DNA of 64,000 bases. Source: Cyanidioschyzon merolae. Its lineage: Eukaryota. This document shows, piece after piece, positions 4,129 through 64,000 of this stretch; positions within the stretch are counted from its first letter, which is position 1, and each line of letters begins with the position of its first letter. The stretch is taken from the NCBI GenBank assembly GCA_000091205.1, contig AP006487.2; one strand, written 5' to 3'. The notes under the pieces were generated by a model. That model was not told where the DNA came from. It did no database searches and was given only the letters and a program-made list of their open reading frames with translations. The translations under genes and the position numbers were made by a program.

Positions 4129-5299
4129 ATACGCTGCTCCGTCCTTTCATCCAGTTTCCCTCCTGATAGTCGAAGGCTGTCAACAGCTGCGTTCGAGTTC
4201 GGACGTGAAGTTTCGGGCACTTATCTATCTATGCCGTTCATGCAGAGGCCGAAGTCGTCATCTACATTTCGCTCGCCATTTTGATCTTCTTTGTATGCAG
4301 CAGCAGCAGCAGCAGCAGCAGCAGTGCACCGTCTCCAGCGGCGACACTTGGGTGCCGTCGGGTGCTTCTATAGGCGCACCACCATCCAGCCTCCTCCAGA
4401 CGCTGCCTCGTGTCGCGTCAAACTTGCTTCATCGCAAGGTGTACGCCCTTGAAGGACACAGGGGCGCTCCACTCGATGCCCCCCTCCGTTTCGACGCCTG
4501 GTGTCGTACACTGTGGTCGCGGCCTTCCTCTTGGCGATTCGTTCTGCGACTGTTCTGTCTGCTGGACACGCAAGAACGTACTGTTGCATCCAATAAGATA
4601 TTTTGTGGAAAGCGATCTTGTCCTTGATAAAACACGAACCAGAAGGAGAATTCAGACTGGACAACACGTCGAGGAATTCCGACCCGGCTACGCTTGCACC
4701 ATTGCGAGCGAGAGATACAAAAAAACTCAGACCGGAGTCCAAGCGCCTGTCCCGTGCAAACAGAAGCGACGTCAGCCACTGAGCACAGATCCCCAAAGAG
4801 GTATCATGCAGATTTCGAATCCAGATTCGTCGATGGCCACGACGAGAGGAGCAATCATCTATCAAACCGAAATTATTACAGGACATGGTATGTTCAGTGA
4901 TCTTTTCGCATGAGCTTGCGAAAAATTCGCCAACGGTCAACGTCGAGATTTTCTCCTCGTCAGTTCAGCAGCGCGAATCGCTGCGTACGATGGTTGCCTT
5001 TAAACATAAAGATCGAGAACGTGAAGAATATGTGATTTGAACCTGCTACACACAAGCAAAGAAGGATCGTGGATGCTTGCACGTCTGCATTGCATACGGA
5101 TATCGATTCTTTCTTGCGTTCCCATGTTCGACTGCGTCGCGAATCCTCTTCATTCCAGTGGTGTCACGCCTTGCAGCGACAATGCTTCCAAGGCGCTACA
5201 TCGAAAAAAAATAACGACCGAGAATCCTGAATCGACGTATGAATCCGCATCCCCTTATGGTTGCTCTTCTAGTATCGAGTCTGTACATCTCAAAAACAT
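4129..5299 (+). repeat. Copy A of a ~1.17 kb dispersed repeat; near-identical inverted partner at 61448-62604. Contains an internal (CAG)9 run at about 4298-4325
   Basis: The two regions are co-linear at the DNA level. The same ORF translations appear in both: MKFRALIYLCRSC... (4205-4627 + and 62115-62528 -), MTVGEFFASSCEKITEHTMS... (4368-4940 - and 61801-62313 +), MNLL[H/Y]TSKE[G/E]SWMLARLHCIRIS... (5037-5360 + and 61324-61704 -). They differ only by scattered substitutions and CAG-run length. Ends were estimated where flanking sequence diverges. Confidence 0.85.
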
Positions 5300-20513: not shown

Positions 20514-21425
20514 ATGGTGCGCGCAGCACGCGTTCGCTTACCAGCTACCAGGGGGCAGGCAGTGCCGCACGAGCACGCTTGCGGTGAGCAGGTCTCCATG
20601 GTGCGCGTGTTTGGGAACCCCGTCGGGGGTGCGCATCAATACCGTCAGACTCAGGCGTTGAACCGCGATGAGTCTCTTAGAGAACAGCTACAAAGAACGA
20701 CTGTGGCGGAGCAGGATGAAAACATTGAGCCAGAACCTGAACGCAGTTCACCGGACGAGGCACAGTCGCGCCTCAAGTCGCTGCTGGGGAGCGTCGCACG
20801 CTCCAGTTCACTGCTCGGTCGACGCGTGGCCGGTCCGCCCGGCTCGTCGTTATCGAATCTAGCGGAGACGAGGCTTCTCACGGAAGAAGCGGCAAACAGG
20901 CCTACTGGCGCGGGACGCAGCGAACGCGTCTCAGCCGGCAGAGCGGAGCCGTTGCCACCGGGACCCACCACCGCCACTACCAACGCTGATGCGAATACAG
21001 TTCAGCGAGGGCTATCTGTGGCGAGCGCGTTTCCACCTCGAGCACCGCTGCAAGCCGCCGGTTTCACTGTCGCGCGACGGACGACACGGTCTGGTGTACA
21101 ACGCAAGCACCGCTTCCGGCCCGGATCACGTGCTATCATGGAGATTCGCAAGTTCCAACGCTCCACGGAGTTGCTGCTCCGCCGTTTACCGTTCGCGCGC
21201 CTTGTACGAGAGATTTGTGAGCGTTTGTTTGGAAGCTCCGCGTTCCGCTGGCAGGCAAGTGCGCTCGAGGCATTGCAAACCGCAGCAGAGGATTATCTCA
21301 TACACCTCTTCGAAGACAGCAATCTTTGTGCAATCCACGCTCGCCGAGTGACCATCATGCCGCGAGATATCGCCCTTGCACGAAGAATTCGTGGCTATCA
21401 TAGCGATCCGCACGGGTACCTCTGA
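20514..21425 (+). CDS. CENH3: Histone H3 variant, centromeric CenH3/CENP-A candidate (303 aa; about 190 aa divergent N-terminal tail plus histone fold)
   Basis: C-terminal about 110 aa aligns to the H3 histone fold: [35 protein letters not shown]...[45 protein letters not shown] (compare canonical H3 [35 protein letters not shown]...[33 protein letters not shown]). Loop 1 is 2 residues longer than canonical H3 ([15 protein letters not shown] against DFKTDLRFQSSAV). The N-tail is long and unalignable and the C-terminus is divergent. All are CenH3 hallmarks. Confidence 0.7.
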
Positions 21426-40723: not shown

Positions 40724-41675
40724 AAGTCGATGCGGTCCCAGAGCGCAGTGCGCTGCACGGACGGTGTCCAGCGTCTGGAGCCGTCAAGAGTCGTGAACGC
40801 TGGTTTGTTCACAGCGTTTCGGCTGGATTCGGCGGCATCGGGGTCATCGTGTGGTTCGCGGATGCATCATCTCGGAGACGTTCCCTGCTGAGCCGCATCT
40901 TGTTTCGGGGATTTGTGCGAACACTTGTCGCAGGAAAAGAGGGAGAACCACGCGATCGCTGGCAGCGTCGTATGCAGCGATGTCGTCACTGAGTGGTACG
41001 GCTTGAGCGCGTTCAATTTAGCGATGCTCGCTGGGAGCTATTTTGTCTCTGCGGAAAGGCAGTCGTCGAGGCTGTTCATACCAGATGCTTCATTTTATCG
41101 AGCAGCGCAGACGATTGTTGTTGAATTCGCTATTGGACGGAGGAGAACAGCGCGCTTGCGCTTGCTTTTGGAGCGAATTGCATCCGAGCGATGCCCGGAG
41201 AGCGCGCATGCACGCTCTGTCTTTTGCACGCGAGTATCATGCGCACTCAAAGACTAGAGATCTGGAGAGCAGTTTGAAAGCCCCTAGCGCGCTAGCATTT
41301 GCCTAGGTCGGAATGCGCTTCCAGCGATGGATCTGAGCCCCGAGCGCCGTGCAAGCAACAGCGAAGCACATGCCGCAGTTGCCAAGAACGCAACCACGGG
41401 TTTTTTGTCCGCAGGCGTCCCGCGTGAGCGAAACGCAACCGAGTTCAGTGCTTGCTGGCTGAACACCCGAAGATCGTGAAACGCACACTGTCCAAATCAT
41501 CGATATAGTAGGATGTCCAAATAGACAGCATGCTTTAGAGCTACTCGAGGCATGGTAAAAAGATACAAGGCACCGCATCTGCATCGTCTACGCAAATCTG
41601 CACCGCGATCCCAACGACAACGAGCCGCAGCAGCCGAGTCCGACGAGGCATGCGCACACATCGAGTATCGAACAG

Positions 41676-42115
41676 CTACCGCTTGCACAAAGCAGCACCG
41701 CCATCATGAAAGGTAAAGCACGCGATGCGTTTGAGCGTCAAAGGCAAACACCCGTGTCAGTTTCAAATGGAACGGGTTCACTAGGCTACCGCTTGCACAA
41801 AGCAGCACAGCCATCATGAAAGGTAAAGCACGCGATGCGTTTGAGCGTCAAAGGCAAACACCCGTGTCAGTTTCAAATGGAACGGGTTCACTAGGCTGAC
41901 GCTTGCACAAAGCAGCACAGCCATCATGAAAGGTAAAGCACGCGATGCGTTTGAGCGTCAAAGGCAAACACCCGTGTCAGTTTCAAATGGAACGGGTTCA
42001 CTAGGCTACCGCTTGCACAAAGCAGCACCGCCATCATGAAAGGTAAAGCACGCGATGCGTTTGAGCGTCAAAGGCAAACACCCGTGTCAGTTTCAAATGG
42101 AACGGGTTCACTAGG
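41676..42115 (+). repeat. Minisatellite: 110 bp unit x 4 head-to-tail copies (>95% identical)
   Basis: Unit ctaccgcttgcacaaagcagcaccgccatcatgaaaggtaaagcacgcgatgcgtttgagcgtcaaaggcaaacacccgtgtcagtttcaaatggaacgggttcactagg, repeated from 41676 to 42115 with 2-3 substitutions per copy. 110 is not a multiple of 3, so it is not a coding repeat. Confidence 0.9.
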
Positions 42116-43507
42116 CTGATCTGGACGCACATCGCAAACCCCTGGTCTCTTCCAAATGTCATCAAGGCTAACCTCTGCGGGACTTGTCTGCGACTGCTTG
42201 CGTTTCCTATCTATTGCCTCCAGTTTTAAATGCGCCGGTCTCTCCAGTGTCAGTGGCTCCGATGCAAGCAGTTGATGGGTCCTCGTGGCAACCTTAGAAT
42301 CCCGAGAGCGCCGCTTCCGGCTATTGTGGAGACATATGACGCACAGGCGCTAGTCCCGATCCAGGCATCGCGTAGAAACTGAATGCGTTTCTCAGACAAC
42401 CTCGGTGCGTCCTGTGTAGCGGCGACACGCGCCAGTGATTATGCGTCCCCATTCGTTCACGCAACCAGCGCCACCAGCGCCTGCTCTTCCGAGCGCCGCA
42501 CGATGGCGCCCAAACGCTCGCTTGCTCGCTCCACACAGGTCATTGACGAGTACGGAACGCTTCCCTAGATATCCTCGCGCGTTTCAGCGCCAGACACCGG
42601 CCCCCGCGATCACGTACCTGTTCCGGGCGATGCCGTCGACGAGTACGCTGTCGGATGCACACACAAGCGCACACTGTTTCATTCGATCAAGGATTTGTGG
42701 AATGCGCGGTTGTCCATAATGAGAATCGTGCCGGGAGAAGGACTACCCAAACCGGAGAACAAGTCGAGAAATTTCGATCTGTCTACGCGCCATTCATGAA
42801 AGCGGAGGCGTACTCTGTACGTTTAGCGATCGCTGCAAACATCAAGGTCCGAATCCAGGACCCTTTTCCATGCAAACAGAAGCATAGGGAACCTCTGGTA
42901 GCATATTCCGAGAGAAATATCACGCAGATGTGGAAAGTTGTCCAGTCGATAACCAAAAAATGCGGAGTATTTGTCTTTGGAATGAAATTCTTTACTTGAC
43001 GGTGCACGCTCAGTGACCGTTCGACGTGCGCTCGGGAACAACTCGTCAACAAACGACGTCGAGTATCCTCGCTCGTCGATTCAGCGACGCGGTTAACGGT
43101 ACCCATGAGTTGCCTCGAAAGAGAACGGTCGAAAACTTGAAAATTGCCCGATTGATGCACGTTCCACGCATCGAAACGAGATGCGTGAACGCATTGACGT
43201 GCGAATCAAAGAACCACGTCGGTTACTTGACAAACCCGTGGTTGCATGCATCACGAGTCACACAGAGTCCTCTGAGGTACCATATTCCAGCACCGAAGCG
43301 TCAAACAAGTCACTCCAAAGAAACAACCAAGCATTCTAGAACAAGGTTCGAATCCGTTATCTCCTCTGCCTGCACGGCCTATGTCGATGTTGCCCATCTA
43401 AACGTGTCCGACGGTAATCGCTTGGCAAGAGCAGACCATTGCTCCACCCAAGTGAAACACAGAGATACGTACAGAGAGCCACTTTTGTGTGGCATGCATG
43501 CAGCCTA

Positions 43508-55580: not shown

Positions 55581-57640
55581 TCGGCTATATCACTGATATG
55601 GTCGGCTCGAGCCGAGCTCGAGTTATATCGTGACGCGGGGATCCAGCAGTCGATGTATGCAGGCCTACCTTCGCGTGACGACGCGCTCAAGGAACTTGAT
55701 CGTTAGAACGAAACCTGGGCACCGGTTCTTGCTTGCGCTAACGCCACTTGAATGCTTCACTGTATCGCCACGCGGACTTTTGCACGGCACCCGTCCAGTG
55801 GGCAGCTGCATGAACCGCTGTACCCGTGTGCTCATCCATTTCCCGAGACCTTTTGCCAGGATGGCAGACACGCCGTCCCTGCATCGGGAAGCACGCCTCA
55901 TGTCCTCGGTGTGCGTCGACAGCACCTGTGTCCAGTACCCGAACATATCGCCTATTGCGCTAGCGAAGCAGCTCCATACTGCCTCTGCTTCGGCACTATC
56001 GGGCTATTCCGAATGCAAAGCTCAGTATCGGCGCATTATGGAACATACGATATGACCAGCGTCTTCAACGGGAAGTATGAGCATTGGAACGCGGAGAAAC
56101 GATGAAGCATCAAGGGCGCTTTCCCGATCGCGTCTATCAGGCGCATTACAGTCTTTCAGCTCAACATCGGTTCAAAGTCGCTGCAGTGGACAGCAGGAGA
56201 TCGAAATCAGGATGCCATGTACTGAATAGGCTGTTGAGGAATTACCTGTAGAATATATATTCTTAACTGAACAGCACAAGGAGGACTGCATTCGTCTTTC
56301 AGGTCAGACGCATCACAATACGTAGATGGTCGAGGAACACTGAAAGAAACACGTAGATGCGCTCCGCTCCAAAATCCGGTATTCTCGAAGAGTACCTGCT
56401 GTCAATCGCAGAGAGCCGGTCAGTTGAATACCTTACGGAAAGCAACAGCGACGATCGTAGCGACTACGTGGGTCAAATTTTCTCGCCAGCTTGTTCGTGT
56501 AATCCTGAAAACACTGGGATACGAGCGCAAAAGAGTCCTAGATGAGACACGGCCTTCCTCGACCGAAATCGCAACTACAACAAAAAACCCTGGAACGATG
56601 CGATGTGTACGAAGTATAGGATCGTCGGTTTGTTATTTTTGCAGTCGATGAGACTTGCTTCGGATGAAAGCGTCGGAGCGTATATGGGTACTCGCGGAGC
56701 AGGGCGCCCGTTGCGAATGGACGATTGAACTTGAGGAGACAGAGGACATTGTCTGTTCTAGCTTTAGTGGATTTATTTGGCGGCCCCAGTTAAGCTTATA
56801 GAGAACGCTCATATAACAGCACGGACACTGTTGTCGAATCATCGAAGAGTTTCCCCGAACCTCGGGCGACGTTCCCCTGCAGGACAGAGTGGCATTTCAC
56901 GATGCGCTGTGCGTTCGCGCTTCTCCGGATTCTATCGGGATCGCGCCGCTTTCCATTCCTCGGTACGCTCCATAATTCAGCCTCATCGAAGGAGTATTTT
57001 CTATTGTAAAAAAAGTAATGATTGCTTTTCTGGACGAATCGCTGAAGCGTTCAGCACACAGTGACACGCAGGAACACATGTCGTTGTCCTTCTGCACGTC
57101 CTTCTTCCTCCGGGAGGGCCCTGACTCACGGTCATGCAGCTGTGCGTCCTCTGAAGAAATGAAAAATCCAAGGGATAGGTATCGTCATGAAAGTCGAGGA
57201 TCCCAGAGGCCCCGTGTCGAAGAGTTTCACTGAAAAACGGAAGAAAACCGCTTCGCGCGTCTCTTCAATCTTCTCTCTGCTCGATTATCAGCGAGGTGGA
57301 TGTTTTCGGGGGGTTTTCGGGGGGTTTTCCCGGCACTCGGCGACACTGGACCCACTAGAATCCCCTACATCCACGTCCATATCTATCCCTCGGATTTTGT
57401 CTTCCACCAAATGGTTGCACCTCGAACAGTCTGTTAAAAAAAGCGAAACAAGCATTTGATGACACGCATCTGGACGTGGAACACAATTCAGGTGAAAGAC
57501 CAGAAACGTCGACAAGTGCGCGACGCAGCAGCAGCGGCAGCCGCATTCTTGTTGAGGTTGTCGTTCTACCGCTGCGACTGCGCTCGCGTGCTGTACAACA
57601 ACTCGCTGCTGCTCATTTCGGCTTGTGTCCAGGACCAAGC

Positions 57641-58435
57641 ATGGCATCTGGAGCGAGTGCGGAACATCTGTGTGGTTTTCTGGGGCTACCCGGGGTTGCG
57701 TTTCTCCGCAGAGGAACAGTCGTGCGTGCGGCAGAGCGGAGGCAGTTGGCGTCTCCGGGAGTCCGGCGAAGAGCACCCGCGTCGCGCAGACGAGAACGCA
57801 GCACACGGACGCTGGTTCAGGAGTTTTCGCGACGTGGTCAGGATGCCATTGACTCGCGTGTACCGGAGCTTGTGGAGGAAGTCGACCCTGGCATCGTGCC
57901 AGGCGTCAGTCTGCGCATCGTTCGTTACCCGCACCGCGTCCTCCGGGCACCGAACGAACCGGTTACCGTTTTCGACGACGCTTTGCTGAAACTCGTACGT
58001 GACATGTTCAAGGTTATGTATGCAAGCAGGGGCGTTGGACTTGCAGCTCCGCAAGTTGGTATCAACAAACGGGTGATGGTCTTTAACCCAAAAGGTGACC
58101 CCCGGGCGTGGCTGAGCGAGGTTGCGCTCGTGAACCCGCGAATCATTGAGCGAAGCGAGGCCACGGAGGAGGGTATGGAAGGCTGTCTCAGTTTCCCAGG
58201 GGTATCGGGCGATATCGAGCGCTCGCTCATGATCAAGGTGGAGGCGATGAAACCGAACGGGAAACGCTTTCAGGTCAAGTATCAGGGTTGGACGGCCCGA
58301 ATTTTCCAGCACGAATACGACCATCTGGATGGCGTGCTCTTCATTGATCGGATGAAACCGGCGGTGCGGGAGCAGAACCGCGGGGCGCTCGAGAACCTCA
58401 TGCGGCAAGTGCCCGAGTCGGAGCGTGCCCTCTGA
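57641..58435 (+). CDS. PDF: Peptide deformylase, organelle-type, with an Arg/Ser/Ala-rich N-terminal presequence (about 264 aa from the first ATG)
   Basis: The three PDF motifs are present: GVGLAAPQVG (motif 1 GxGxAAxQ), EGCLSFPG (motif 2 EGCLS), QHEYDHLDG (motif 3 HExxH metal site). The ORF-track start at 57476 is GTG. The first ATG is MASGASAEH at about 57641. The about 90 aa upstream of the catalytic core looks like a transit peptide. Confidence 0.85.
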   Translation: MASGASAEHLCGFLGLPGVAFLRRGTVVRAAERRQLASPGVRRRAPASRRRERSTRTLVQEFSRRGQDAIDSRVPELVEEVDPGIVPGVSLRIVRYPHRVLRAPNEPVTVFDDALLKLVRDMFKVMYASRGVGLAAPQVGINKRVMVFNPKGDPRAWLSEVALVNPRIIERSEATEEGMEGCLSFPGVSGDIERSLMIKVEAMKPNGKRFQVKYQGWTARIFQHEYDHLDGVLFIDRMKPAVREQNRGALENLMRQVPESERAL

Positions 58436-60625: not shown

Positions 60626-61447
60626 GAAGACTACGGTTGAGACTCGGTGCTCGATGTCCGATAGCCGCGTGATGAGATATCGTTCGCAACTGCAGCTTCG
60701 AAGGCGGTTTCTTGATCATACTGGCAAGCGAACGAGCGCCTGTATCGACGGCAACTCCAACCTTGCCATCAAGGCGGATGCAGCGCTCAGCGCAGCGGCT
60801 CGAGGCTCTGCTGCAGCCGCTCCGCTCCCGCTGGTATGCAGCCACCCGAAACAACGCTTACTGTTTCCGGAAAAGTTATTTGTTTTCGGATATTGAGAAA
60901 CCAGTGGCAGTATTCAAGGGTTGCAGGTCCAGATGAACGCTGGTTCACAGGCACGCGACTGGACGTTCCGAGTTTGCACAGGAGGCTCGAGGCGGAACCA
61001 GCGAAGCGCCAGTGCTGTTTACAGGCCTCGTGAGCGTTCTGCTGGCGAATGCGTAGAATAAGCGAGCCAAATTCGTCTAATCGGCCTCAGGGTGTTTGGT
61101 TCGTTGAAAGGTATTCTGAAACTAGAGTCAAGTTTGCATGTTGAAAAGACGCCGCGCCCTATGCGGCGTCAAACGTGCGCATGCACCTTGCAGTGCAGGA
61201 GATTCGAAAGAATGCATAGCCCAGGCATGTGTTTATAATGTTGTGCATATGTTTTTGTATCTGAACGTATATGTGCGGCTTTGTGTCGACCGGTCTCGTG
61301 ACCGGCTAGTCTAACAAGCGAGCTCAGGCAAGGACCGGTCGTTTTGGAAAACGGCAGCATTTGGAACGCGACACACATCCGTGGTAGACCAGAACGGAGC
61401 AGTGCGCTCTGTACCTGCTTTGTTGATGTTCGCATCTGAACTTGTTT

Positions 61448-62604
61448 TTGAGATGTACAGACCCGATACTAGAAGAGCAACCATAAGGGCATGCGGATTC
61501 ATACGTCGATTCAGGATTCTCGGTCGTTATTGTTTTTCGATGTAGCGCCTTGGAAGCATTGTCGCTGCAAGGCGTGACACCACCGGAATGAAGAGGACTC
61601 GCGACGCAGTCGAACATGGGAACGCAAGAAAGCATCGATATCCGTATGCAATGCAGACGTGCAAGCATCCACGATTCTTCTTTGCTTGTGTATAGCAGGT
61701 TCAAATCACATATTCTTCACGTTCTCGATCTTTATGTTTAAAGGCAACCATCGTACGCAGCGATTCGCGCTGCTGAACTGACGAGGAGAAAAACTCGACG
61801 TTGACCGTTGGCGAATTTTTCGCAAGCTCATGCGAAAAGATCACTGAACATACCATGTCCAGTAATAATTTCGGTTTGATAGATGATTGCTCCTCCCGTC
61901 GTGGCCATCGACGAATCTGGATTCGAAACCTGCATGATACCTCTTTGGGGATCTGTGCTCAGTGGCTGACGTCGCTTCTGTTTGCACGGGACAGGCGCTT
62001 GGACTCCGGTCTGAGTTTTTTTTGTATCTCTCGCTCGCAATGGTGCAAGCGTAGCCGGGTCGGAATGCCTCGACGTGTTGTCCAGTCTGAATTCTCCTTC
62101 TGGTTCGTGTTTCATCAAGGACAAGATCGCTTTCCACAAAATATCTTATTGGATGCAACAGTACGTTCTTGCGTGTCCAGCAGACAGAACAGTCGCAGAA
62201 CGAATCGCCCAGAGGAAGGCCGCGACCACAGTGTACGGCACCAGGCGTCGAAACGGAGGGGGGCATCGAGTGGAGCGCCCCTGTGTCCTTCAAGGGCGTA
62301 CACCTTGCGATGAAGCAAGTTTGACGCGACACGAGGCAGCGTCTGGAGGAGGCTGGATGGTGGTGCGCCTATGGAAGCACCCGACGGCACCCAAGTGTCG
62401 CCGCTGGAGATGGTGCACTGCTGCTGCTGCTGCTGCATACAAAGAAGATCAAAATGGCGAGCGAAATGTAGATGACGACTTCGGCCTCTGCATGAACGGC
62501 ATAGATAGATAAGTGCCCGAAACTTCACGTCCGAACTCGAACGCAGCTGTTGACAGCCTTCGACTATCAGGAGGGAAACTGGATGAAAGGACGGAGCAGC
62601 GTAT
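61448..62604 (-). repeat. Copy B of the ~1.17 kb repeat, inverted relative to copy A (4129-5299); internal (CAG)6 run
   Basis: See copy A. The reverse complement of 61448-62604 aligns end-to-end with 4129-5299. Confidence 0.85.
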
Positions 62605-62885: not shown

Positions 62886-63998
62886 CTACGTCGTTCGAAA
62901 CCCGAAACTACTCACTGCGCGCTGTTGCTGGTGTCGTTCGAGATGCTCCCTAATTCGGTACAGGGGACGTCGGCCAGCTGGCGCCGCCTCTTGCGCGTAC
63001 CACGCTCGCACGGCTATCTCGGCGACAATACCAAGACCAAGAAAAATGAGTGCAGTCAGGGTCACGGAGGCAGAGAGCACAAGCAATGCTGTACGGCTAA
63101 CGAGTCGACCCAAGGGGTTTCTGCTCAAGTTGGACACGCCGGCAATCATTCCCAGCAGCGGCATGATCAGGGCGTTGGGTAGGAGGGCCAGCACCACAGC
63201 GATTGCTCCCAGCACGAGGGCAATCGTCCCGAACCAGTGCATAGGCCGTGTCGCCTGCCGAGTAAGGTAATGGAGCAGCACCAGATCGCAAATGACGCGA
63301 AACGTGCGACCAAGGCCGTACTTGCTGGCACCGTAACGTCGCGGTCGATGACGAACCTCCATCTGACCGAGGCGAGCACCTTCGATTTTGGCTAAAACTG
63401 GTATAAATCGATGCATTTGGCCGAATAGTTGGATATCGCTCAGAATGTCGGCGCGGTAGGCCTTGAGTGAGCATCCTAGATCGTTCACTTCGTGGACTCC
63501 GGTTGCCGTGCGAATGAGCGCATTCGCCACCTGGCTGAGCCACGTGCGTATCGGGTCGTCGCGTCGCTGCCGACGCCATCCGCTCACGACATCGAGCGAT
63601 GCTTGCTTCAGCTTTTCCAGAAGAGGAAAGATATCTTGCGGCTCCTGCTGCAAGTCACCGTCCATGGTGACAACAACTTCGCCCTGGGCTGCATCAAATC
63701 CAGCTGCCAGCGCTGCTGTCTGTCCATAGTTTCGACGGAAAAAGACCCCCACGAGGTGCGAGGGCAGCAACAACCTCTCGCCAGCTGGGGCGTTGTACTC
63801 GTCACGCAGTATGTTACGTAGCAGTGCCGTCGTGCCGTCGGTAGAGCCATCGTCGACAAGCACAACCTCAACCTGCCCACGGTACTGCTCTGGTGCGCTC
63901 TCCGTCTCCAGTGCCTCGTAGAGCGCACGCAGCAAAGCAACCAGAGCCTCAGACTCGTTGTAGAGCGGGATCACAACAGAAACGGGGTATTTGTACAT
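62886..63998 (-). CDS. GT2-family polyprenyl-phosphate glycosyltransferase with GtrB/ArnC-type topology (N-terminal catalytic domain plus two C-terminal TM helices), at least 370 aa
   Basis: VSVVIPLYNESEAL, VDDGSTDGT, RNYGQTAALAAGF, TMDGDLQQEP and GWRRQR...SKYG align with the ArnC/GtrB catalytic domain (VSVVIPVYNE..., LIDDGSSD, RNYGQHSAIMAGF, TLDADLQNPPEE). Two C-terminal TM helices (WFGTIALVLGAIAVVLALL and LLVLSASVTLTALIFLGLGIVAEI) give the bacterial GtrB/ArnC topology, unlike the usual ALG5 topology. The ATG is 2 nt from the window end, so the true N-terminus could lie beyond 64000. Confidence 0.85.
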   Translation of the reverse strand: MYKYPVSVVIPLYNESEALVALLRALYEALETESAPEQYRGQVEVVLVDDGSTDGTTALLRNILRDEYNAPAGERLLLPSHLVGVFFRRNYGQTAALAAGFDAAQGEVVVTMDGDLQQEPQDIFPLLEKLKQASLDVVSGWRRQRRDDPIRTWLSQVANALIRTATGVHEVNDLGCSLKAYRADILSDIQLFGQMHRFIPVLAKIEGARLGQMEVRHRPRRYGASKYGLGRTFRVICDLVLLHYLTRQATRPMHWFGTIALVLGAIAVVLALLPNALIMPLLGMIAGVSNLSRNPLGRLVSRTALLVLSASVTLTALIFLGLGIVAEIAVRAWYAQEAAPAGRRPLYRIREHLERHQQQRAVSSFGFRTT

Positions 63999-64000
63999 AC

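Follow-up and report, generated by a model that had tools for sequence, protein, structure and literature searches.

A predicted ArnC/GtrB-type polyprenyl-phosphate glycosyltransferase, bacterial in origin and probably organelle-directed, encoded in the nuclear genome of Cyanidioschyzon merolae

The stretch of Cyanidioschyzon merolae DNA analysed here (64,000 nucleotides of contig AP006487.2, assembly GCA_000091205.1; hereafter the window) carries typical eukaryotic nuclear genes, among them those for PP2A-B56, a PRONE RopGEF, MARVEL and Myb proteins, Rpb2, a GATA protein, a CENH3-like histone, phosphoenolpyruvate carboxylase and an MBOAT protein, and it ends in a gene for a glycosyltransferase. 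This last gene appears in the list of open reading frames (ORFs) as an ATG-started frame of 370 codons on the minus strand (62886..63998), and its ATG stands 2 bases short of the window's end, just as an earlier note made from the letters of the window had described it. The reading favoured here, with rather better than even confidence, is that this nuclear gene encodes a polyprenyl-phosphate glycosyltransferase (Pren-P GT) of ArnC/GtrB type directed to an organelle, most likely the plastid, and that the gene is ancient and most likely of cyanobacterial origin.

The frame in the window is only part of the gene. Its product is 100% identical to residues 81-450 of a 450-residue protein of C. merolae 10D (BAM79333.1; XP_005535619.1; UniProt M1VFM3), and on an 86-kb environmental contig that covers the same region (L001) the frame stays open upstream of the window ATG for 80 further codons, or 240 nucleotides beyond base 64000 (L001:8001-8240), up to the true ATG, above which an in-frame stop follows at 18 codons. 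The window therefore holds codons 81-450 of 450 and the stop codon (62886-62888). The earlier note had seen no obvious presequence and had advised a look beyond base 64000 for an N-terminal extension; the extension exists, it is an 80-residue leader resembling a transit peptide, and it seemed to be absent only because the edge of the window cuts through the gene. The deposited protein bears the label "probable dolichol-phosphate mannosyltransferase", which is probably wrong and a likely mis-annotation; the gene is already public, probably mislabelled and never characterised. Additional algal GT2 (glycosyltransferase family 2) sequences "with unknown activity" were placed in a tree with DPM1 and ALG5 by Ulvskov et al. 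(2013), and searches of the literature, both under the gene's name and for a Pren-P GT of plastids, yielded no paper.

The glycosyltransferase is a bona fide nuclear gene. Its GC content at third codon positions (GC3) is 0.62, inside the range of its neighbours, and its relative synonymous codon usage correlates with that of the pooled neighbours at r = 0.75, the neighbours' own values running from 0.61 to 0.91. The edge of the window is spanned by four independent metagenome assemblies at 99.3-99.9% identity (99.3% for L001), which have the upstream genes in common (DUF1826, MT-A70 and an ABC transporter); L001, the longest of them, includes in addition the Myb and peptide deformylase genes on the downstream side. 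The comparison of codon usage and GC3 proposed in the earlier note thus gave a host-like result, and its view that the gene belongs to a eukaryotic array and is no contaminant is sustained by neighbours, codon usage and assemblies together. A chimeric contig end, which the same note had raised as a concern, is contradicted by the continuity of all four assemblies across the edge.

By sequence and predicted fold, the protein is a GT2 Pren-P GT of the class that contains ArnC, GtrB and dolichol-phosphate mannose synthase (DPMS). It matches the Pfam family Glycos_transf_2 (PF00535) at E 1.6e-25, above the gathering score and well outside what chance would give, and its best NCBIfam model is that of ArnC (the PRK10714 equivalog, E 2e-46), with 158.5 bits against a curated cut-off of 529. 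Sequence comparison with solved structures gave ArnC of Salmonella and E. coli at E 2.5e-38 over about 270 residues, and weaker matches to Synechocystis GtrB (E 3e-13) and Pyrococcus DPMS (PfDPMS; E 6e-7). An AlphaFold monomer model was built on a 60-sequence alignment, with a mean predicted local distance difference test score (pLDDT) of 79.9 and a predicted template modelling score (pTM) of 0.75. A Foldseek search of the Protein Data Bank (PDB) with this model returned ArnC first (9asc, E 5e-21, 29% identity), then GtrB (2e-16) and DPMS (1e-13), in alignments of about 340 columns that include the membrane part; the top 25 matches were all ArnC, GtrB or DPMS. The earlier note had aligned the catalytic domain with ArnC and GtrB and named the enzyme class accordingly, and both statements agree with these matches and with the motifs described below. 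All the sequence and fold features that Pren-P GT chemistry would need are present, and from these we infer the reaction itself.

The catalytic part is a GT-A domain at residues 84-300 of the full protein, whose numbering is used throughout (63339..63989, on the minus strand like every other feature of the protein); it is delimited by PF00535, by Foldseek and by pLDDT values above 90 over most of the span. Within it lies the DXD metal/nucleotide motif D193-G-D195-L-Q-Q (63645..63662), read from the sequence and from a HMMER alignment to ArnC, with the counterparts 100-DADLQN-105 in ArnC, 94-DADLQD-99 in GtrB and 89-DADLQH-94 in PfDPMS. The first aspartate of the motif is the proposed catalytic base in ArnC (PMC12690121). 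Alignment to ArnC also identifies an arginine cluster, W-R222-R-Q-R225-R-D-D-P-I-R231 (63546..63575), in which R222 and R231 align with ArnC R128 and R137, the residues that coordinate undecaprenyl phosphate (Und-P) in the cryo-EM study of that enzyme (PMC12690121). In family alignments of 60 and 115 sequences D193, D195 and R225 are invariant, and R222 and R231 are invariant or nearly so.

The membrane part follows the catalytic domain. A helix predicted by AlphaFold at residues 311-327 (63258..63308) precedes the anchor; then come transmembrane helix 1 at residues 332-352 (63183..63245; Kyte-Doolittle segment 332-369, peak 2.54; AlphaFold helix), an extra short hydrophobic helix between the membrane helices at residues 354-366 (63141..63179; alignment and AlphaFold), and transmembrane helix 2 with its cytosolic or stromal continuation at residues 375-418 (62985..63116; Kyte-Doolittle segment 379-415, peak 2.33; AlphaFold). 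The two C-terminal transmembrane helices claimed in the earlier note are thus found by both methods. Helices next to the membrane and a C-terminal anchor have been described for ArnC, GtrB and DPMS (PMC12690121), and by its position helix 311-327 may be the counterpart of the juxtamembrane helices of ArnC. Near the C terminus AlphaFold places a beta-strand at residues 429-434 (62937..62954), in a conserved Y-R-[IV]-R motif of which Y427 is invariant and R428 and R430 are nearly invariant in the 60-sequence alignment. The C-terminal strand of ArnC packs against the neighbouring protomer of the tetramer (PMC12690121), and strand 429-434 of the model is the predicted counterpart of this protomer-bridging element.

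ArnC (PmrF; PDB 8VXH, 9ASC, 9BHC, 9HWJ), which transfers 4-deoxy-4-formamido-L-arabinose to Und-P in Salmonella and E. coli, is the closest solved relative by both of the comparisons above (28-29% identity). The likeness extends to the GT-A domain, the DxDLQ motif, the counterparts of R128 and R137, the pre-anchor helix, the two C-terminal membrane helices and the C-terminal strand; unlike ArnC, the algal protein has an 80-residue leader, a C-terminal tail and three insertions, two of them in the catalytic domain and one separating the membrane helices. An assignment to ArnC proper was rejected on the score, far below the curated cut-off, and on the missing arn context: no matching arn-family genes were found in the window or in the 8 kb beyond its edge, which hold eukaryotic-type genes and unassigned ORFs. 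GtrB of Synechocystis PCC 6803 (sll0501; PDB 5EKP, 9NYC), a UDP-glucose:undecaprenyl-phosphate glucosyltransferase, shares the superfamily, the architecture and the DXD chemistry and is itself cyanobacterial, but it is far more distant (20-22% identity). GtrB proper was rejected on the strength of E 3e-13 against 2.5e-38 for ArnC, and no GtrA-like neighbour occurs in 82 related loci (65 non-cyanobacterial, 17 cyanobacterial). The most distant sequence of the alignment was E. coli YfdH, at 24% identity.

The closest non-eukaryotic sequences are cyanobacterial proteins annotated as "glycosyltransferase family 2 protein" (in Phormidium tenue FACHB-886, Geitlerinema sp. PCC 9228, Cyanobium and Nostoc, for example), which at 42-46% identity to the C. 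merolae protein belong to an ArnC-like paralogue family different from GtrB. Their alignment covers the mature algal protein from end to end and takes in the two membrane helices and the YR[IV]R strand at the C terminus, but they have no leader and a shorter loop between the helices. Compared with them the cyanidiophycean proteins have the leader and the two catalytic-domain insertions, as well as a C-terminal tail ending in a conserved FGF, and the inter-helix insertion of about 15-25 residues is found in eukaryotic orthologues and not in cyanobacterial ones. DPM1/DPMS and ALG5 catalyze the same type of reaction with the same GT2 fold, and PfDPMS is a detectable structural relative, but the relationship is far weaker and the membrane topology differs.

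Orthologues with comparable leaders occur in all four genera of the Cyanidiophyceae: those of Cyanidiococcus yangmingshanensis (451 residues, starting MSTGF), Cyanidium caldarium (486 residues, containing GFVAP) and Galdieria phlegrea (360 residues, starting MHTKF) join the C. merolae protein, as does one from environmental Cyanidiales that starts MHEGF. A distant match (P0158), located on a eukaryotic contig that carries a split CRAL_TRIO gene, was used as a query in its turn and recovered the family in Physcomitrium patens, Sphagnum, Klebsormidium, two Closterium strains, Spirogloea, Mesostigma and Pyramimonas; Chara braunii also has a member. The lineage-specific pathway that the earlier note had listed among its explanations is not supported in the sense of a gene restricted to this alga, as mosses, streptophyte algae and a prasinophyte possess it as well. 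According to the literature, the green taxa that keep it are largely those known or predicted to retain plastid peptidoglycan. A profile search with 16 eukaryotic sequences found nothing new in glaucophytes, other red algae or secondary algae, from a candidate list swamped by cyanobacteria. The Chara protein is unusual in that a single gene model (GBG78209.1, P0163, 1284 residues) joins a DUF92 domain to the GT2. DUF92 is the family of the plant phytyl-phosphate kinase VTE6, and the model is either a real fusion of a prenyl or prenyl-phosphate kinase with a Pren-P GT or a pair of adjacent genes that annotation has run together.

The gene is bacterial in origin and its acquisition certainly ancient. 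All named non-eukaryotic sequences among the best 120 matches of three large searches were cyanobacterial, with identities of about 50% to the green orthologues, and by similarity the red and the green sequences are each closer to cyanobacteria than to one another. A maximum likelihood (ML) analysis of 48 taxa and 313 columns, with 5 red and 8 green sequences and the fragment P0135 as eukaryotes, used a home-made program (rates derived from BLOSUM62, +F, four gamma categories, alpha 0.8, nearest-neighbour interchange (NNI) as the only rearrangement) in which support is measured locally, as 2*deltalnL relative to whichever NNI alternative is the better. In the best tree (lnL -20076.0) the group (red,(P0135,green)) is the sister of the cyanobacterial clade, and Burkholderiales-type sequences follow; support was 47.9 for the red group, 20.4 for the green, 5.1 for red plus green and 12.0 for eukaryotes plus cyanobacteria. 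A second search from a heavily perturbed start, which had not converged (lnL -20101.9), again gave the 28-leaf clade of eukaryotes and cyanobacteria, with the red sequences outside green plus cyanobacteria and the red-plus-green node not recovered. These trees suggest that a cyanobacterial, endosymbiotic source common to the red and green lineages is the most likely one. In the same ML tree a sequence from Zobellia groups with Prochlorococcus within the cyanobacteria, a placement that could reflect transfer between marine bacteria or long-branch attraction.

The leader missing from the window begins MRPGFIVYYKLPCDQRRLQACRYR in the full protein. The N-terminal extension, counted as 86 residues to the first beta-strand motif, holds 19 arginines and lysines against 7 aspartates and glutamates, and residues 1-77 are predicted to be disordered (pLDDT below 50). 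Extensions of this kind, all basic, are general among the full-length eukaryotic models, in which 84-123 residues precede the first strand, against 9-24 in cyanobacteria. A phenylalanine near the N terminus and FVAP-like motifs are hallmarks of the plastid transit peptides of red algae and glaucophytes. Three Cyanidioschyzon/Cyanidiococcus-type sequences and Galdieria have phenylalanine at position 5 (MRPGF, MSTGF, MHEGF and MHTKF), and the GFVAP of Cyanidium caldarium lies in its leader. Judged by composition and the phenylalanine motif, the leader resembles a transit peptide; it is probably organelle-directing, and the most likely compartment is the plastid. The literature searched contained no experimental data on plastid localisation.

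The wider family is large and spread over many phyla (26,273 cluster representatives at E <=0.001 and 1,180 at <=1e-30), and its gene neighbourhoods give some idea of the pathway. When E. coli ArnT and a cyanobacterial PMT_2 served as seeds for iterative searches, an ArnT/PMT_2-type GT-C glycosyltransferase turned up within 8 kb in 22 of the 65 non-cyanobacterial loci, often immediately adjacent and on the same strand. The neighbours of arn kind that recur in bacteria are this GT-C, SDR-type proteins and a few ArnE-like ones; seeds for GtrA, ArnB, ArnD, ArnF and YfdI found no neighbours in the 82 loci. P0078 had no recorded contig. Geitlerinema PCC 9228 has the order epimerase, LPG_synthase_TM, GT2, PMT_2, and close relatives of the enzyme occur fused to LPG_synthase_TM, PAP2 or polysaccharide deacetylase domains. 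LPG_synthase_TM is the flippase-type domain of MprF, and PAP2 has the fold of undecaprenyl-diphosphate phosphatases. These neighbours and fusions fit a role in supplying a lipid-linked sugar, within a cycle in which undecaprenyl diphosphate (Und-PP) loses a phosphate, Und-P receives a sugar on the cytoplasmic side, and the product is flipped and used outside by the GT-C. Among the cyanobacterial loci the usual order is a beta-lactamase-like gene (PF13354; 10 of 17 loci), an NlpC/P60 plus SH3_16 peptidoglycan hydrolase (8 of 17), the GT2 gene itself, an MFS transporter (6 of 17) and MoaC, and the NlpC/P60 neighbours hint at a cell-wall-linked role of the cyanobacterial orthologue. About 4 kb on either side of the GT2 gene is conserved in order from Prochlorococcus to Nostoc (L007, L021, L022, L025, L027, L028, L034 and L042). 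The flavobacterial loci (L035, L062, L077, L081 and L084) belong to Zobellia, Flagellimonas and Allomuricauda, and they have a GT-C downstream, at 48 bp in Zobellia and at 880 bp on the opposite strand in Flagellimonas and Allomuricauda. A metagenomic protein of 633 residues (P0128), the third-best representative match, repeats the whole Pren-P GT unit in tandem, with two GT2 domains each followed by membrane helices.

Several reports bear on whether the other parts of such a pathway occur in these algae. Reports of GT83, the ArnT family, come from red algae and, within the green plants, from P. patens alone, so that by the literature it shares the odd distribution of the Pren-P GT gene. Putative bacterial undecaprenyl-diphosphate synthases have been reported in the Cyanidiales, and the cyanidialean plastid genome encodes the cyanobacterial digalactosyldiacylglycerol synthase DgdA, so that the interior of the plastid must have a supply of sugar nucleotides. 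C. merolae and Galdieria both have listed GT19/LpxB genes, which makes a lipid-A-like acceptor conceivable.

On the favoured reading, the enzyme would act as follows. The 80-residue leader would direct import and then be removed, and the mature protein would sit in the inner envelope or thylakoid membrane by its two C-terminal helices, with the GT-A domain in the stroma, the equivalent of the cyanobacterial cytoplasm. There the DXD motif would bind a divalent metal and a nucleotide-sugar, probably a UDP-sugar, and one sugar would be moved to a polyprenyl phosphate whose phosphate is held by the conserved arginines. After flipping, the lipid-linked sugar would serve as donor to an ArnT/PMT_2-type (GT83-like) GT-C on the opposite face of the membrane. 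The gene would most likely descend from the plastid's cyanobacterial ancestor and have survived in the Cyanidiophyceae, in streptophyte algae and bryophytes, and in one prasinophyte or more. The analysis itself shows the ORF with its motifs and membrane segments, the fold, the leader, the set of orthologues and the gene context in bacteria; the reaction and its compartment, the membrane orientation, and the identity of sugar, acceptor and partner enzyme are inferred from these.

A number of observations weigh against this reading, and those on origin also feed a rival to it. Neighbor-joining (NJ) trees with Kimura and Scoredist distances (115 and 127 sequences, 200 bootstraps) had the topology (red,(green)) next to cyanobacteria, but eukaryotes plus cyanobacteria received bootstrap values of only 3.5-8%, and the Scoredist tree separated Galdieria from the other red algae; these trees were not used as support, because their deep nodes did not resolve. 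Best-hit ranking, in which 37-43 of the 44 top matches were cyanobacterial, was likewise downgraded as evidence for origin, because much the same counts came from E. coli ArnC (31 of 44) and from ordinary members of the family in bacteria (median 26.5, maximum 41); the cyanobacterial sequences are the most consensus-like of the family, and the ranking therefore carries little weight. A profile contrast, the score against a cyanobacterial hidden Markov model minus that against a model of other bacteria, was +73 to +150 for true cyanobacteria and +2 to +15 for the green sequences, but only -18 to -4 for the red ones, with E. coli ArnC at -23 and left-out bacteria at a median of -49 and a maximum of 0. 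Eukaryotes also share just 1-5 of 11 cyanobacterial signature columns (bacterial median 1), and by contrast and columns together the shift of the eukaryotic sequences towards cyanobacteria appears modest. The ML program, moreover, was home-made and confined to NNI, with support values that are local. An enzyme of the same class that the ancestor of the Cyanidiophyceae received by horizontal gene transfer from a non-cyanobacterial bacterium, the green copy being acquired independently, would account for the indecisive NJ trees, for red contrasts that overlap the upper tail of ordinary bacteria, for the greater similarity of red and green sequences to cyanobacteria than to each other, and for a red-plus-green node that has a support of 5.1 and is lost in the unconverged run. 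It would agree, too, with reports that about 1% of Cyanidiales genes were horizontally acquired, putative Und-PP synthases among them, and with the searches made, whose matches included no orthologue from Rhodophytina or glaucophytes, a result from which absence cannot be concluded. This rival, although a live one, is nevertheless rather unlikely, given that the clade of eukaryotes and cyanobacteria appeared in both ML searches, that leader-bearing orthologues exist in both the red and the green lineage, and that host-like codon usage and presence in all four cyanidiophycean genera make any transfer an ancient one. Of the candidate explanations offered in the earlier note, an endosymbiont-derived gene accordingly fits best, on an ML placement next to cyanobacteria with moderate support and distance methods that did not resolve the matter.

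With respect to compartment and pathway, the leader could send the protein to mitochondria or elsewhere, a GT-C lies near only 2 of the 17 cyanobacterial loci (Geitlerinema and one other), most cyanobacterial orthologues adjoin an NlpC/P60 peptidoglycan hydrolase and not a GT-C, and the GT-C partner in C. merolae is known from the literature only. Red algae are considered in the literature to be without peptidoglycan, so that a purely peptidoglycan-linked role cannot explain the cyanidiophycean copy. The enzyme might thus be as described above and yet act outside the plastid, its leader being a mitochondrial presequence or an uncleaved cytosolic extension of a protein of the endoplasmic reticulum (ER) or plasma membrane. 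A basic, disordered leader fits mitochondrial presequences as well, and the plastid assignment is a prediction read from the leader sequence. Plant lipid-A-type (Lpx) enzymes of bacterial origin are reported to be mitochondrial, and GT19/LpxB genes are among those listed for C. merolae. The resemblance of the four phenylalanine-bearing leaders and of the Cyanidium GFVAP to the plastid motif, and the cyanobacterial affinity in ML, point the other way, and a non-plastid location seems rather improbable. An ER dolichol-phosphate mannose or glucose synthase (DPM1 or ALG5) serving N-glycosylation and glycosylphosphatidylinositol (GPI) synthesis, as the database label has it, is a good deal less probable again: the deposited name and the common GT2 Pren-P GT superfamily speak for it, but DPMS is the weakest of the three structural relatives (6e-7 against 2.5e-38 for ArnC), the named close homologues are all cyanobacterial or algal orthologues, canonical DPM1 and ALG5 have been reported separately in C. 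merolae (Ulvskov et al. 2013), and the anchor is a C-terminal pair of helices, not an N-terminal one. The distinction from the ALG5 type of anchor drawn in the earlier note agrees with this C-terminal pair. Bacterial contamination or a chimeric contig end, suggested by a bacterial-like protein encoded at the very edge of the window, has next to no probability: codon usage and GC3 agree with the neighbours, and the four environmental assemblies carry the same eukaryotic neighbours on both sides, which together exclude it, and three other cyanidiophycean genomes have orthologues.

Other features of the window may be mentioned briefly. A dispersed inverted repeat of 1.17 kb lies at 4129-5298 and 61443-62604 (97.6% identity), one copy beginning 282 bp past the stop codon of the glycosyltransferase gene; environmental C. 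merolae contigs carry both copies too, the ORFs inside the repeat had no Pfam match, and the repeat is a candidate for a mobile element or a duplicated regulatory or non-coding segment. Between the MARVEL-domain and B56 genes there is a tandem array of four copies of a 110-bp unit (41675-42117; 98% matches). About 4.5 kb from the glycosyltransferase, on the plus strand, a peptide deformylase ORF (57476-58435; GTG start as listed) has some 145 residues ahead of the deformylase domain, and this bacterial-type enzyme may also carry an N-terminal leader. Finally, a 303-residue protein (20514-21425, plus strand) with a long N-terminal tail and a core histone fold only at residues 190-293 looks, by sequence, like a centromeric H3 (CENH3) variant.

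The extent to which cyanobacterial machinery for building the envelope survives in plastids is an open question, and the peptidoglycan of moss plastids was an earlier surprise of a similar kind. A leader-bearing synthase of polyprenyl-phosphate sugars, present from cyanidiophyceans to mosses, would imply a lipid-linked donor, an acceptor and a GT-C that have not been described in organelles. As a tentative extension, for which the odds are distinctly against, cyanidiophycean plastids may keep a full bacterial-style system of lipid-linked glycosylation, made up of a bacterial-type cis-prenyltransferase, the Pren-P GT, a flippase and a GT83/PMT_2-type GT-C, and acting on an acceptor that lies in the thylakoid lumen or the intermembrane space; bryophytes and streptophyte algae would retain the same relic, and seed plants would have lost it. 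Cyanidiophycean plastids are considered in the literature to have no peptidoglycan, and C. merolae no cell wall; the acceptor could be a lipid-A-like lipid or an envelope protein. With its wall-less cells, its tiny genome and the possibility of gene targeting, C. merolae is an organism in which this hypothesis is directly testable.

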